The notes: generated from the letters alone by a model not told the origin. 64,000 nt of DNA from an uncultured Gemmatimonadales bacterium (GCA_963798915.1 CAWCVB010000005.1:441291-505290), one strand, 5' to 3'; positions 27,648 through 31,930 are shown, counted from the stretch's first letter. Translations and numbers: made by a program.

Positions 27648-27863
27648 ATGCGCTACGATGATATTCTCTCCTTGCTCGGCTATGCTGGCGACCACGACCA
27701 GCGGGTCAGGATCGTGACCTCCGAACACACCGAAGTGGTCGGCATTCCCACCAGTCTGGATACGGACGTTACGGCCCACGAGGTCTACCTGCGGCCCGAA
27801 GAGTCGGACGAGACGGAGATTGCGGTTTCGCTGGGCGCCATCGCCTCGGTTGAGCTGGTTTGA
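27648..27863 (+). CDS. Small hypothetical protein (possible Sm-like fold)
   Basis: RBS GAGGAG; helix followed by several short beta strands, acidic. Confidence 0.6.
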   Translation: MRYDDILSLLGYAGDHDQRVRIVTSEHTEVVGIPTSLDTDVTAHEVYLRPEESDETEIAVSLGAIASVELV

Positions 27864-27877
27864 CTCCTGGCCGTGAC

Positions 27878-27903
27878 GAAACAAACTGAAACATCAGGAC
27901 GTA
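27878..27903 (+). promoter_or_regulatory. Candidate ECF-sigma promoter (GAAAC-N17-CGTA)
   Basis: gaaac aaactgaaacatcagga cgta, 57 nt before the array; resembles the SigW-type TGAAAC-N16/17-CGTA consensus. Confidence 0.45.
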
Positions 27904-27960: not shown

Positions 27961-28218
27961 GTGGAAGGCATACTGGCTATCATCTTCATCTTCGGCGTGC
28001 CAGGAGTGATCGCGCTGTCCTTTACCCCCATCGGGAAGGCCCTGACGGAGCGGATCCGCCACGGCGTTCAGCCCCGGCTGGTCGAGTCAGAACCGGCGAT
28101 GTATGACGAATTAGACGCCTTGCGCCGCGAGGTCGGGGAGCTGGCCGAACGAGTAGATTTTACGGAGCGATTGTTGGCCAAGCAGAATGAGCCCCGCCTG
28201 GTGGAGGGCGGCGAATGA
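27961..28218 (+). CDS. Small membrane coiled-coil protein, array member 1
   Basis: One TM, PIGKALTERI, ELAERVDFTERLL; RBS GAGGAGG. Confidence 0.85.
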   Translation: MEGILAIIFIFGVPGVIALSFTPIGKALTERIRHGVQPRLVESEPAMYDELDALRREVGELAERVDFTERLLAKQNEPRLVEGGE

Positions 28219-28535
28219 TGCAGACCGCACCCGTCCTGGCCGGAGATGGCATCCGTCTTGAGCCCTTCATCGTCGGCATCGTCATTGTGATCGCCATTAT
28301 CGGTGGCGTCCAGCTGCTGCTGCCGTTGGTGCGGGCGCTTGCGCGCCGATTGGACGGGGGCGGCGAATCGGCACAACTTCATGACGAACTCGAGATGTTG
28401 CGGGCCAGGGTCCTCGATTTCGAGCCGATGACTCAACGGGTGGCCGAGCTGGAAGAACGCCTTGACTTCACGGAACGCATGCTTGCTGCCAGCGCCCAGC
28501 CCGCCCCCCGGCCTGTCTCGCCGCAGGAGCCCTGA
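28215..28535 (+). CDS. Array member 2
   Basis: One TM, PLVRALARRL, ELEERLDFTERML; ATGA overlap. Confidence 0.85.
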   Translation: MMQTAPVLAGDGIRLEPFIVGIVIVIAIIGGVQLLLPLVRALARRLDGGGESAQLHDELEMLRARVLDFEPMTQRVAELEERLDFTERMLAASAQPAPRPVSPQEP

Positions 28536-28538
28536 CCG

Positions 28539-28589
28539 GTGGAAGACGTCATCAAGGTGTTGCTGCTCATCCTCGGTGGGAGGGGGTAA
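28539..28589 (+). pseudogene. 16-codon mini-ORF MEDVIKVLLLILGGRG, remnant of an array member
   Basis: GTG with AGGAG 9 nt upstream; resembles the N-terminus of member 1; fills the gap between members 2 and 3. Confidence 0.45.
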
Positions 28590-28592
28590 CTC

Positions 28593-28949
28593 ATGAGGCG
28601 GGAAAAGCAGGAATGGATCGGTGCCGCCTTTGTCGGAATCGGGTTGGGGGCGATGGCACTGTTTGGCGCGCTCGCTGCGGCGTCCGCCGTGCTGGGTCCG
28701 ATCTCCGTGCCGATCTGGGCCATCGCCGCATTCATGGTGATGGGTATTGTGAGGTCGCCTGTCGGGAAGGCATTTGCGGAGCGCCTCGCGGGCCGCACCA
28801 CTGACTCCGACGACCCGGATCTGCCCGCGCTCTACGCCGAACTTGACGAGTTGCGGGCCCGCCTGAGCGAGATGGAAGAACGCCAGGATTTTGCCGAGCG
28901 GTTGCTGGCGCAGCCACCGCAGGCGGGAATTCACGGGGAAGCGAGCTGA
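28593..28949 (+). CDS. Array member 3
   Basis: Two hydrophobic segments, PVGKAFAERL, EMEERQDFAERLL. Confidence 0.85.
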   Translation: MRREKQEWIGAAFVGIGLGAMALFGALAAASAVLGPISVPIWAIAAFMVMGIVRSPVGKAFAERLAGRTTDSDDPDLPALYAELDELRARLSEMEERQDFAERLLAQPPQAGIHGEAS

Positions 28950-28952
28950 CTC

Positions 28953-29270
28953 ATGATGCTTCAGGGAACTCAGTCGGGCGAGTTTGGCATGGCGCTGGCG
29001 CTTGGCGCCGTTGCGATCTGCCTGATCTTTGTGGTGCTGCGGCCGCTGATGGCGGCGCTGATGCATCGGATTGCCCGCCATGATGATGAGTCGTTGCTCG
29101 AGCTCGAGGCCCGGGTGGCGCGCTTGGAGGAGGGCGGGATGATGGGAGCGCTTCCCTCACAGACGGAGCAGAGGGTGGCTGAGCTGGAAGAACGCCTCGA
29201 TTTTGCCGAGCGATTGCTGGCGCAGCCACGGACGCCCGGTTCGCATGGCGCCGAGGGAGTGATCCGATGA
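28953..29270 (+). CDS. Array member 4
   Basis: One TM, PLMAALMHRI, ELEERLDFAERLL. Confidence 0.85.
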   Translation: MMLQGTQSGEFGMALALGAVAICLIFVVLRPLMAALMHRIARHDDESLLELEARVARLEEGGMMGALPSQTEQRVAELEERLDFAERLLAQPRTPGSHGAEGVIR

Positions 29271-29596
29271 TGATCCAGGTTCCGGCGCCACCGGCGCCTC
29301 CTGACATCCCCAGCTTTCTGGTCCAGACGGGCGGTCCTCCGGCCTGGGCGTTTGTCATCCCGATCGTTGCGATCCTGGTCGCGGGGATCGTGTTCTTCCC
29401 CTTGATGCGTGCGCTGGCACGACGGATAGAAGGGAAGATCAGCGGCGGTGTGCAGGATGAGCTGGAGGATCTCCGGTCACGGATCATGACCTTGGAGGAA
29501 CAGGCGATGCGCGTGCCGGAGCTGGAAGAGCGGGTGGACTTCGCGGAGCGACTCCTGGCCAGCACCCGCACGGCCGACCGGTTAACGGAGGGATGA
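29267..29596 (+). CDS. Array member 5
   Basis: Pro-rich N-terminus, one TM, PLMRALARRI, ELEERVDFAERLL. Confidence 0.85.
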   Translation: MMIQVPAPPAPPDIPSFLVQTGGPPAWAFVIPIVAILVAGIVFFPLMRALARRIEGKISGGVQDELEDLRSRIMTLEEQAMRVPELEERVDFAERLLASTRTADRLTEG

Positions 29597-29599
29597 GTC

Positions 29600-29974
29600 A
29601 TGGCGGATGACCAGGATCGCGGCGCTTTCACCATGCTCTGGATCGTCTCGGTACTGCTCTCCATCGGCATGGGGTTCATGTGCCTGGTCGCTCTGAGCGA
29701 AAATCAGGAAGTCGCGGCGCTGTTCGGGTTGGGCGGTTTTGGTGTTGGCGGCTTGCTCGCTACCACCTACCAGCTCACACGCAACCGGCGTCGTTCGCGG
29801 CCATCGGACGAGGCCCTCGAGCCACTGGTGGAGCGACTGCAGATGCTCGAGCAGGACCAGCTACGGATGGCCGAACTTGAAGAGCGGGTAGATTTCGCCG
29901 AACGGATGCTGGCCAAAGCCGAGGAGCATCAGCCCGCGGTGCGCTCAGGCGAGCGGGAACCACCCCTCACATGA
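29600..29974 (+). CDS. Array member 6
   Basis: Two hydrophobic segments, ELEERVDFAERML. Confidence 0.85.
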   Translation: MADDQDRGAFTMLWIVSVLLSIGMGFMCLVALSENQEVAALFGLGGFGVGGLLATTYQLTRNRRRSRPSDEALEPLVERLQMLEQDQLRMAELEERVDFAERMLAKAEEHQPAVRSGEREPPLT

Positions 29975-30336
29975 GCTGGCGCAGGACTTTCGGGCTTGAC
30001 CCGATTGAGTTCATCATCTTCTGGCTGCTGGCCTTCGGGTTGGGCGTGGGCCTGGCCGACCTCAGCCACGAGGACGGATTCATTCCTCTCGCGCTCTCGG
30101 TGGCGGCGGGGCTCTATGTGTTCGTCCGGCGCCGAGCACTCGGGCGGCTGGGGCGGGAAGGGCAGGCCGGTGATGACCTGGCGGAATTGCGCGACGACCA
30201 GCGCGCCGCCACCGACTACTTTGAGCGCCGGATCACGGAGATCGAGGAGCGCCTGGACTTCACGGAGCGGATGCTGGCGCGGGCTCAGGATGAGATGCCG
30301 CTGCTGGAGCCCCGGCGGGGCGGGCAGGGCTCGTGA
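29971..30336 (+). CDS. Array member 7
   Basis: MSWRRTFGLDPIEF, two TM, EIEERLDFTERML. Confidence 0.85.
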   Translation: MSWRRTFGLDPIEFIIFWLLAFGLGVGLADLSHEDGFIPLALSVAAGLYVFVRRRALGRLGREGQAGDDLAELRDDQRAATDYFERRITEIEERLDFTERMLARAQDEMPLLEPRRGGQGS

Positions 30337-30722
30337 GCTGGCGGGGTGTTTTCGGGCTCGACGGAGTCGAGTTCGTGCTCTTCTGGGCTGGCTCCATCGT
30401 TACGGCGATCCTCGTCGGGGTGGCCTCGGAGGAGCCGGCAGCAGCGATGTCAATGCTGGTACTGGCCGCGTTCGTGTACGCGGTGCTGCGACGGCGGGCG
30501 CTCCGCGGCCTGCCGGCGCAGGACGGGGGCAAGCTGGAGGAACTGGTGGCCCAGCTGCAGGACGAACAGTCGGCCGCATCCGAGTTCTTCGAGCGACGCA
30601 TTGCCGAGCTGGAGGAGCGGGTGGACTTTGCTGAGCGCATGCTGGCGCGAGGGCAGGAAGAACGGCTGGAAGCTGGCCGTCAGTCATCGGTCATCAGTCG
30701 ACCGTTGACTGACGACCCTTGA
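30333..30722 (+). CDS. Array member 8
   Basis: MSWRGVFGLDGVEF, two TM, ELEERVDFAERML; GTGA overlap. Confidence 0.85.
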   Translation: MSWRGVFGLDGVEFVLFWAGSIVTAILVGVASEEPAAAMSMLVLAAFVYAVLRRRALRGLPAQDGGKLEELVAQLQDEQSAASEFFERRIAELEERVDFAERMLARGQEERLEAGRQSSVISRPLTDDP

Positions 30723-30757
30723 CCGGCACGAGCGACGACTTACTCACGGAGCACCAC

Positions 30758-31153
30758 ATGGTCACACGGGAAGATATTCAGTCCTGGCTGGACCGGCTGG
30801 ATGGAGGCGGGCTCCAGATCGAAGAGCCGGAGTCCAATCTCTGGATTGCCACGACGCCGGACGGCGGCGAGATCGTATGTAACTATGCCCCTCCGGTCAT
30901 GATTCTCCGGGTGCGGGTCATGGAAGCTCCGCGGGACGATACCCGCCGGGCCGAGCTCTTTCGGGAGCTCCTGACCTTGAACGCCCACGAGCTGGTCCAT
31001 GGCTCGTACGGGCTGGAGGGTGACCATATCGTGCTGACGGACACCCTCGAGCTCGAGGACCTGGATTATTCCGAATTCGAAGCCAGCTTCGATTCCATGA
31101 CCCTTGCCCTGGCGTCGCACATGTCTGCGCTGGCGCCCTACCGAGACAGGTGA
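30758..31153 (+). CDS. CesT/YbjN-like (type III chaperone fold) protein
   Basis: Acidic, 131 aa; LFRELLTLNA.ELVHGSYGL....IVL..TL.LE.LD..EF pattern. Confidence 0.75.
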   Translation: MVTREDIQSWLDRLDGGGLQIEEPESNLWIATTPDGGEIVCNYAPPVMILRVRVMEAPRDDTRRAELFRELLTLNAHELVHGSYGLEGDHIVLTDTLELEDLDYSEFEASFDSMTLALASHMSALAPYRDR

Positions 31154-31162
31154 GAGACGACG

Positions 31163-31930
31163 ATGGGAATCTTTGACCGCTTCTCGACGCTGCTCCGGTC
31201 GAACATCAACGACCTCATCTCCCGGGCCGAGAATCCCGAGAAGATGCTGAACCAGCTGATCACGGACATGCGATCACAGCTGGGCAAGGCCAAGACCGAG
31301 GTGGCGGGTGCCATCGCGGACGAGAAGAAGCTGGAGTCCGACGCCCAGGCCATGAAGAAACAGGCCGAGGAGTGGGAACGCCGTGCCATGCTGGCGGTCC
31401 AGGAAGGGCGTGACGACCTGGCCAAGCAGGCGCTGACTCGCTACAACGAAAACCTGCAGGGCGCCCAGCAGCTGCACGAGACCTGGGTCAAGTCCAAGCA
31501 GGAGACCGAGGCGCTGAAGCTGTCGCTCCGGCAGTTGAATGACAAGATCGAGGAAGCCAAGCGCAAGAAGAACATTCTGATTGCACGAGCGCGGCGGTCC
31601 GAAGCGCAGCAGCGCATTCAGCAGACCATGGCTGGCATGTCGGACAAGAGTGCCTTCGAGTCGTTCGAGCGGATGGCGGAGAAGATCGAATCCAACGAAC
31701 GCAAGGCGCTGGCGGCGGCCGAATTGCACGAAGAGTTTACCGGCGACTCGCTGGCCAGGCAGTTCGAGGTGCTCGAGTATCACGGCAGCGCCGACCAGCA
31801 GCTGCTCGAATTGAAGCAGAAGATGGGACTGCTCGGTGCCGGCAGCAGTGGCGAGGCAAGGCGCCTCGGCAAGGGAATGGATGACGTGCAGGATGCCGAG
31901 GTGGAGGAGGAGGGGGGAACTGAAGGCTGA
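31163..31930 (+). CDS. pspA: PspA/IM30 family protein (bacterial ESCRT-III)
   Basis: MGIFDRF..LLRSNIN.L...AENPEKML.Q, A.LA..EGR.DLA..AL, FERM.EKI, L.ELK.KMG. Confidence 0.95.
   Translation: MGIFDRFSTLLRSNINDLISRAENPEKMLNQLITDMRSQLGKAKTEVAGAIADEKKLESDAQAMKKQAEEWERRAMLAVQEGRDDLAKQALTRYNENLQGAQQLHETWVKSKQETEALKLSLRQLNDKIEEAKRKKNILIARARRSEAQQRIQQTMAGMSDKSAFESFERMAEKIESNERKALAAAELHEEFTGDSLARQFEVLEYHGSADQQLLELKQKMGLLGAGSSGEARRLGKGMDDVQDAEVEEEGGTEG

Follow-up and report, generated by a model that had tools for sequence, protein, structure and literature searches.

What is the role of a run of small membrane protein genes that leads directly into pspA, a gene of the ESCRT-III superfamily? The question is raised by a 64-kb stretch of DNA (referred to here as the window; G000:C5:441291-505290), part of a 3.3 Mb assembly that is 84.8% complete and whose close matches are labelled Gemmatimonadales metagenome-assembled genomes (MAGs). 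Eight consecutive plus strand open reading frames (ORFs) at positions 27961-30722 each encode a protein of 85 to 129 amino acids (aa) that carries a common sequence box, and are followed by a CesT/Tir-type (YbjN-like) chaperone-like gene and by pspA. It is plausible that these proteins are made together with PspA and act as its membrane partners, a reading of the combined analyses in which our confidence is about even. The features of the locus are listed below; letters denote clusters of the N-terminal parts (heads) of the array proteins, and f1 to f12 denote families of genomes.

27878-27903, plus strand: promoter-like motif of the extracytoplasmic function (ECF) sigma type, GAAAC-N17-CGTA, 58 nucleotides (nt) upstream of gene 1
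27961-28218, plus strand: array gene 1, 85 aa, GTG start, one transmembrane (TM) segment, head cluster A (first in most f1 arrays)
28215-28535, plus strand: array gene 2, 106 aa, one TM segment, family profile E 1.1e-31
28593-28949, plus strand: array gene 3, 118 aa, Gly/Ala-rich TM hairpin, cluster E
28953-29270, plus strand: array gene 4, 105 aa, one TM segment, cluster S
29267-29596, plus strand: array gene 5, 109 aa, Pro-rich N-terminus followed by one TM segment, cluster B (13 loci)
29600-29974, plus strand: array gene 6, 124 aa, two TM segments, cluster F
29971-30336, plus strand: array gene 7, 121 aa, two TM segments (the second just below threshold), cluster D
30333-30722, plus strand: array gene 8, 129 aa, two TM segments, cluster D, a duplicate of gene 7
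30719-31153, plus strand: ninth gene, CesT/Tir-type (YbjN-like) chaperone-like, Pfam PF22550 CesT_Tir_1 7.7e-24
31163-31930, plus strand: tenth gene, pspA (PspA/IM30, ESCRT-III superfamily), Pfam PF04012 2.2e-47

The original prediction, made from the sequence of the window, described an eight-gene tandem array in which six of the seven junctions are 4-nt overlaps or 3-nt gaps. The exact ORF coordinates agree, and from gene 1 to gene 8 the junctions are -4, +57, +3, -4, +3, -4 and -4 nt. The ninth gene overlaps array gene 8 by 4 nt and pspA starts 9 nt past the ninth gene. That a CesT/YbjN-like gene and pspA directly follow the array is borne out by the Pfam matches. The ninth protein matches CesT_Tir_1 with 84.6 bits (cut-off 27) over positions 5-128 of 131, and its matches to YbjN (18.4 bits versus 22, E 0.0026) and CesT (16.7 versus 22) are below cut-off. 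The tenth protein displays a full-length match to PspA_IM30 (162 bits versus a cut-off of 33.9, positions 1-217 of 220), and is the single such match in this incomplete genome.

Is the array tied to pspA in other genomes? Forty relatives were surveyed for the family and for PspA (both tallies include the unpublished genome G023). Family matches are found in 24/24 f1, 7/8 f3 and 1/8 f2 genomes, and PspA is present in 38/41 genomes. ORFs of the pspA or array regions were then scored in 27 f1/f3 genomes and in 8 genomes of the sister family f2. Of the 27, 25 have the array immediately before pspA on the same strand, with or without an intervening ybjN-like gene; in the remaining two (G008 and G024) the array and the ybjN-like gene reach a contig end, and pspA begins another contig. 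Arrays consist of 1 to 9 units, some of them cut by contig ends. In f2 the pspA locus lacks an array in all 8 genomes, and ybjN-pspA is found in 6 of them, often right behind uvrA, as in the window.

Important is the sequence that precedes these genes. The motif GAAAC-N17-CGTA upstream of gene 1 is the sole match in the 64-kb window, where 0.21 are expected. Of the 22 loci with enough upstream sequence, 15 have GAAAC-N16-17-CGT no more than 260 nt ahead of the first array gene; the background is 0.017 per 300 nt. Other upstream forms are GACAC (2 loci) and GGAAC or TGAAC (2 loci), and in 3 loci uvrA ends approximately 30-60 nt upstream. The same GAAAC-N16-17-CGT sequence is found upstream of ybjN-pspA in 6/8 of the array-less f2 genomes. 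Thus, since the motif precedes the array in f1/f3 and ybjN-pspA in f2, the array sits between a conserved promoter-like site and ybjN-pspA. At the sequence level, this position is the strongest argument for considering the array and pspA as one unit. The motif has the features by which an ECF-type promoter is recognized, i.e., AAC at -35 and CGT at -10, spaced 16-17 nt apart and conserved at orthologous operons, and we take GAAAC/CGT to be an ECF consensus. It would act as a promoter for the array.

A search for a cognate sigma gene was based on the same motif. None of the 23 sigma70_r2 genes has GAAAC-N15-18-CGT within 500 nt upstream, and one has a TGAAC variant. A generic sigma-70 scan was uninformative: it gave no promoter-like site, and its 3 terminator-like sites (2.1 expected) all lie away from gene boundaries. 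A 71-aa ORF without a Pfam match (window 27648-27863, plus strand) stops a short distance ahead of the promoter-like motif. As its C-terminal coding sequence is conserved upstream of several related loci, it probably represents a genuine gene that is not part of the operon. Outside of the window, a near-twin of the motif, GAAAC-N5-GAAACAT-N5-CGTA, is present at G000:C5:373266-373291; a stand-alone membrane ORF has its ATG 35 nt further on. This ORF (L170:792-1040, plus strand) encodes 70 aa, or 82 aa from the first start, with no Pfam match, and may, by its upstream sequence, belong to the same regulon as the array.

What do the eight array proteins have in common? In their alignment, a membrane part at the N-terminus is variable, and is followed by a juxtamembrane motif, P-h-x-x-A-h-x-x-R, and a box, E-E-R-x-D-F-x-E-R-h-L. 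The invariant tail columns are E60, E63, R64, D66, F67, E69, R70, L72 and A73 (gene 1 numbering). The tail motifs that the original prediction quoted for the eight proteins are all present in the alignment, but they are not the very ends of the proteins, as 10-25 residues follow the box to the C-terminus. Each of the eight ORFs matches the family profile with E values of 1e-21 to 1e-34, far beyond chance. The juxtamembrane motif is nearly invariant family-wide, with P23, A27 and R31 found in at least 90% of 98 sequences. The heads had been divided into three subfamilies, of which the one formed by genes 7 and 8 stands, these two being the only close duplicates in the window array. The supposed groups of genes 1 and 3 and of genes 2, 4 and 5 dissolve into variants of the one juxtamembrane motif.

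None of the eight proteins reaches any Pfam or NCBIfam cut-off. In a collection of proteins at 90% identity, 4728 of 8000 scored candidates match the family at E≤1e-3, and all have "hypothetical" or spurious-looking names and no Pfam domain. At 50% identity the family forms 3372 clusters at E≤1e-3 and 1152 at E≤1e-10. The best 80 genome loci are all from MAGs, 78 with Gemmatimon* titles, one titled "uncultured bacterium" and one labelled Bacillota. A search of Protein Atlas, which is based on a protein language model, yields only unnamed Gemmatimonadota clusters (0.94-0.96), and the best "named" row (0.75) is without a family.

Clustering of the heads of 143 array units from 29 loci shows that head types follow a kept order within a genus, A-(L/Q)-E-(S)-B-F-D, and the window displays A-q-E-S-B-F-D-D. 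Head types A and B recur across f1 genera, and f3 has its own types. Orthologues of array gene 3 are present in other Gemmatimonadales MAGs. Local duplications of heads are found as DD in the window and as FF, GGG, KK and AA elsewhere. Since both head types and their order are conserved, the paralogues appear to be mostly old and individually kept, and not rapidly churning.

In a hydropathy scan, genes 1, 2, 4 and 5 display one TM segment and genes 6 and 8 two, with the second segment of genes 3 and 7 just under threshold. Over 98 family members, the density of Lys and Arg is 0.197 in the 15 residues after the last TM segment and 0.018 in the 12 residues before. By the positive-inside rule, this bias places the box and tail in the cytoplasm, where PspA is. 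The extracytoplasmic parts of the array proteins are 2-28 residues in length, or short loops. They are so short that there is little to sense with outside of the membrane, and the proposal that the array is a panel of sensors for peptides, phage and pore formers is unsupported. A search for long or fused forms gave one match, which resembles a frame-shifted run-through of several units. Near-length matches of 170-210 aa, i.e., "double" proteins, are probable gene-calling or sequencing artefacts, because their second tail would not be on the same side of the membrane as the first, i.e., it would face the wrong way.

The product of gene 1 was modelled with AlphaFold2 and 98 relatives; the model has a mean pLDDT (predicted local distance difference test) of 81.9 and shows helices at residues 2-20 (TM), 23-35 (juxtamembrane) and 45-75. 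The box is within the last helix, with pLDDT values of 96-97 for residues 51-70. A box inside a long, confidently predicted helix is also what would be found if the array proteins were stress-induced membrane proteins that associate with themselves or with each other through the box, as scaffolds or stabilisers, and share the pspA promoter without touching PspA. This is the main rival to a partnership with PspA, and we consider it possible but doubtful. The hydrophobic spacing of 4-3-4 in L-x3-V-x2-A-x3-L fits a coiled-coil core, and the box presumably resembles a published coiled-coil trigger consensus. However, the invariant charged residues E, R, D, E and R fit a specific partner equally well.

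If the array proteins are partners of PspA, the locus would be one envelope-stress operon, in which an ECF-type promoter drives expression of the eight array proteins, all in the inner membrane, together with that of a CesT/Tir-like protein and of PspA. Every array protein would have a TM helix or hairpin, a juxtamembrane helix, a linker of variable length and a cytoplasmic helix that bears the box. Specific to the lineage, these proteins may anchor PspA assemblies to the cytoplasmic side of the membrane, or nucleate or organise them there, in analogy to LiaI for LiaH, YdjG/YdjH for Bacillus subtilis PspA, and PspB/PspC. The differing membrane parts might set the membrane location of each partner, or the formation of mixed oligomers. 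Co-transcription of the array with pspA, contact with PspA and a role in sensing are presumed here. A complex prediction for PspA with residues 22-85 of gene 1 gave scores of 0.22 and 0.23 (mark 0.32) without controls, and weighs neither for nor against binding. An alignment of PspA sequences reveals six columns and a 3-residue indel that are specific to array-bearing genomes, but these follow phylogeny and prove nothing. At approximately residues 205-212 of PspA (numbering of the window genome), f1/f3 sequences read L-E-Y-[HK]-[GA] with no insertion, and f2 sequences have another residue in place of Y, with an insertion of 3 residues after it. As this difference tracks phylogeny, it is a lead only to a possible docking site.

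Is the box confined to the pspA locus? Several observations weigh against a dedicated partnership with PspA. The synteny counts given above are inflated by kinship among the genomes. In five high-quality f1 genomes there are 82 family matches at E≤1e-5, of which 35 are in the pspA array and 47 are dispersed. The dispersed copies in two f1 genomes (15 regions) show the same box on other heads, among them a TM2 domain and a zinc-ribbon-like N-terminus, with varied neighbours. In f7/f6, the copy, one per genome, lies at a distance from pspA or on a different contig in 5/5 genomes. No recurrent neighbour of unlinked copies is found in the f7/f6 genomes or in the dispersed f1 regions that were inspected. 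Since the family is not confined to pspA loci, the box could serve self-assembly or another partner, and these dispersed and unlinked copies suggest that it is a general module of the small membrane proteins of the phylum, of which the pspA arrays are the most conspicuous but not the sole use. The common tail may thus be a general module rather than a PspA-specific device. The original prediction had named homologues mostly unlinked to pspA as evidence that would speak against it; this is partly what is seen for the wider family.

The 47 dispersed copies, together with single copies in other families of the class, also favour association of the small proteins with each other, as the box is found on membrane proteins unlinked to pspA. 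However, self-association leaves unexplained why arrays, and not single copies, are at the pspA promoter in every f1/f3 genome examined. A third way to read the dispersed copies is that the box is a phylum-specific address tag, through which dozens of small membrane proteins per genome, those of the pspA-linked array as well as dispersed ones with TM2, zinc-ribbon and other heads, would call the single PspA polymer to distinct membrane sites or machines. We regard this as unlikely. If it is true, Gemmatimonadota would have a system of many adaptors and one remodeller, with a logic comparable to that of eukaryotic ESCRT-III recruitment.

The spread of the family was assayed in a phylum sample, with 15 candidates scored per genome (tallies include the unpublished genomes G086, G204 and G179). 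Many copies are found in 125/125 f1 and 2/3 f3 genomes, and the only f5 genome has four. Weak copies, one or two per genome, are present in 40/69 f2, 33/47 f7, 5/6 f4, 7/23 f6 and 3/4 f8 genomes. No copies are found in 22 f9-f12 genomes.

An example of a dispersed copy is L009:1480-1866 (minus strand), at approximately 144.4 kb of G000:C6. It encodes 128 aa, with a TM2 domain (PF05154, 1.8e-20; 73.3 bits, above the cut-off of 27.9, residues 12-60) followed by L-S-E-R-L-D-F-A-E-R-L-L. Its orthologue in G017 (L183:2557-3009) adjoins a TrkA-type potassium channel gene. The presence of the box on a TM2-domain protein indicates that it is a module used with unrelated membrane anchors.

Does the CesT/Tir-like protein, and not PspA, bind the common tail? 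The small proteins might be clients of this YbjN-like chaperone, which would bind the tail, e.g., ahead of their insertion into the membrane or their assembly. Array gene 8 and the chaperone-like gene share 4 nt, and passages of PMC11237479 describe CesT-type proteins as binding partner peptides. However, 7 of the 27 f1/f3 genomes (G012, G016, G017, G018, G019, G020 and G022) keep the array and pspA without the ybjN-like gene, the array abutting pspA with no room for it, and 6 of the 8 f2 genomes keep ybjN-pspA without an array. Each thus occurs without the other, and the CesT/Tir-PspA dyad is described in sections of PMC11237479 as also standing alone in many bacteria; therefore the ybjN-like gene tracks PspA and not the array. 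We consider a chaperone-client relation very unlikely.

PspB and PspC of the proteobacterial pspFABC system are among the closest known counterparts of the array proteins considered as partners of PspA. They too are small proteins of the inner membrane that have a helical part in the cytoplasm and share an operon with pspA, and duplicates of PspB within an operon are on record in a passage of PMC11237479. If the array proteins were highly diverged PspB, they would, with PspC, sense stress and titrate PspA from its regulator. The PspB build, i.e., an N-terminal TM segment and a cytoplasmic helix, is seen in genes 1, 2, 4 and 5, and genes 3, 6, 7 and 8 have two hydrophobic segments. Sub-threshold matches to TIGR02976 (PspB) are found for genes 1, 5 and 6 (14.8-17.8 bits, E 0.003-0.03, cut-off 51.7), and the other five have no match. 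Among the 98 family members, 42 match TIGR02976 at E≤0.1 (best 8.2e-5), but GspM (44) and CcmI (38) match equally often, and the signal is thus that of a generic pattern of a TM segment followed by a helix.

The kinship with PspB that the original prediction proposed to check by profile comparison is not borne out. The hhalign probability is 11.6% against Escherichia coli PspB and 1.4% against 23 PspB sequences, an alignment that is enterobacterial only and so restricts what this comparison can say. PF06667 is absent among the Pfam matches of the eight proteins up to E 1, and a genome-wide search with it at E≤0.1 also gives nothing. The only PspC-domain gene of the genome is on contig 2 (G000:C2:65253-65423), and at the locus there is no adjacent pspC, pspF or sigma-54 activator gene. 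The array also differs from pspFABC in its position upstream of pspA instead of downstream, in its 1-9 copies, in the TM hairpins of half of the eight proteins and in the ECF-type motif in place of sigma-54. Considered as PspB relatives, the array proteins are rejected on the scores below cut-off, the low hhalign probabilities and the lack of a pspC/sigma-54 context; we consider a diverged PspB very unlikely.

Another counterpart is the pspA-ydjGHI operon of B. subtilis, which is ECF-sigma-controlled, as the motif suggests for the array, and combines PspA with small integral membrane proteins. As described in part of PMC8581546, YdjG and YdjH are membrane proteins of this sigma-W-dependent operon that are needed for PspA membrane foci. 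However, YdjG/YdjH and the SPFH protein YdjI belong to unrelated families and are encoded downstream of pspA, with no array of paralogues and no common tail box. The LiaI-LiaH pair of B. subtilis is similar in that LiaI is a small membrane protein co-induced with the PspA homologue LiaH, for which it is the membrane anchor. LiaI is a single gene under a two-component system, in contrast to the array and its ECF-type motif, and none of the eight proteins matches the Pfam family LiaI-LiaF-TM at E values of up to 1. LiaI is named as a PspA partner in a passage of PMC11237479. The ninth and tenth genes are exactly the CesT/Tir-PspA dyad described by Ravi et al. 2024 (PMC11237479, in the sections that deal with the dyad), which is found alone in f2.

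Has such an array been described? Literature searches on PspA or phage shock in Gemmatimonadetes/Gemmatimonadota, and on PspA with tandem arrays of small membrane proteins, revealed nothing relevant. In PMC11237479, supplementary tables aside, "Gemmatimon" has 0 occurrences and no array of small membrane proteins is given before the CesT/Tir-PspA dyad; "tandem" has 2 occurrences, with one passage concerning PspA_IM30 repeats. Thus, as in the original prediction, no description of a Psp system with such an array is found in print. As far as the searches go, the array layout is new to the literature, and the CesT/Tir-PspA dyad and PspB duplications are already in print.

For bacterial members of the ESCRT-III superfamily, among them PspA, recruitment to particular membrane sites is understood in no more than a few model organisms. 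In a widespread soil lineage that is mostly uncultured, the pspA operon incorporates a large family that has no name, in arrays of 1-9 paralogues that are old. Should the box dock PspA, it would provide a short, mutable motif for the study of PspA recruitment, and a bacterial example of adaptor diversification. If it does not, the family would still be among the larger undescribed sets of stress-linked small membrane proteins.

Sequences related to the box or to the juxtamembrane motif are also found in other contexts. A variant box, E-V-E-R-I-S-E-G-Q-R-F-T-T-R-L-L, is present on small f2 TM proteins encoded at L078:1444-1758 and L074:1776-2060, both on the minus strand (G031 and G039). The L078 gene is flanked by a kinase-like ORF, for which Pfam gives nothing at E≤0.001, and by a gene with a receiver domain and a sigma-54 activator, and the L074 gene comes after a sensor-kinase-like ORF. 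These f2 proteins may be a regulatory cousin of the family.

A TM protein of 92-97 aa with the motif S-P-I-G-R-A-x-A-x-R-L-E-G and without the D-F box is encoded at L010:1453-1734 (minus strand, G000:C6), L077:1456-1749 and L176:2554-2832. It is beside a BshC-like gene in three families, and once between BshC and MurJ. In G021, a box-bearing protein of 97 aa without a clear TM segment (L174:2516-2809, minus strand) is encoded directly downstream of a PadR-like regulator (L174:2832-3419, minus strand), and further along are genes for DUF4384 and DUF445. A passage of PMC11237479 lists PadR pairs as one of the systems associated with Psp.

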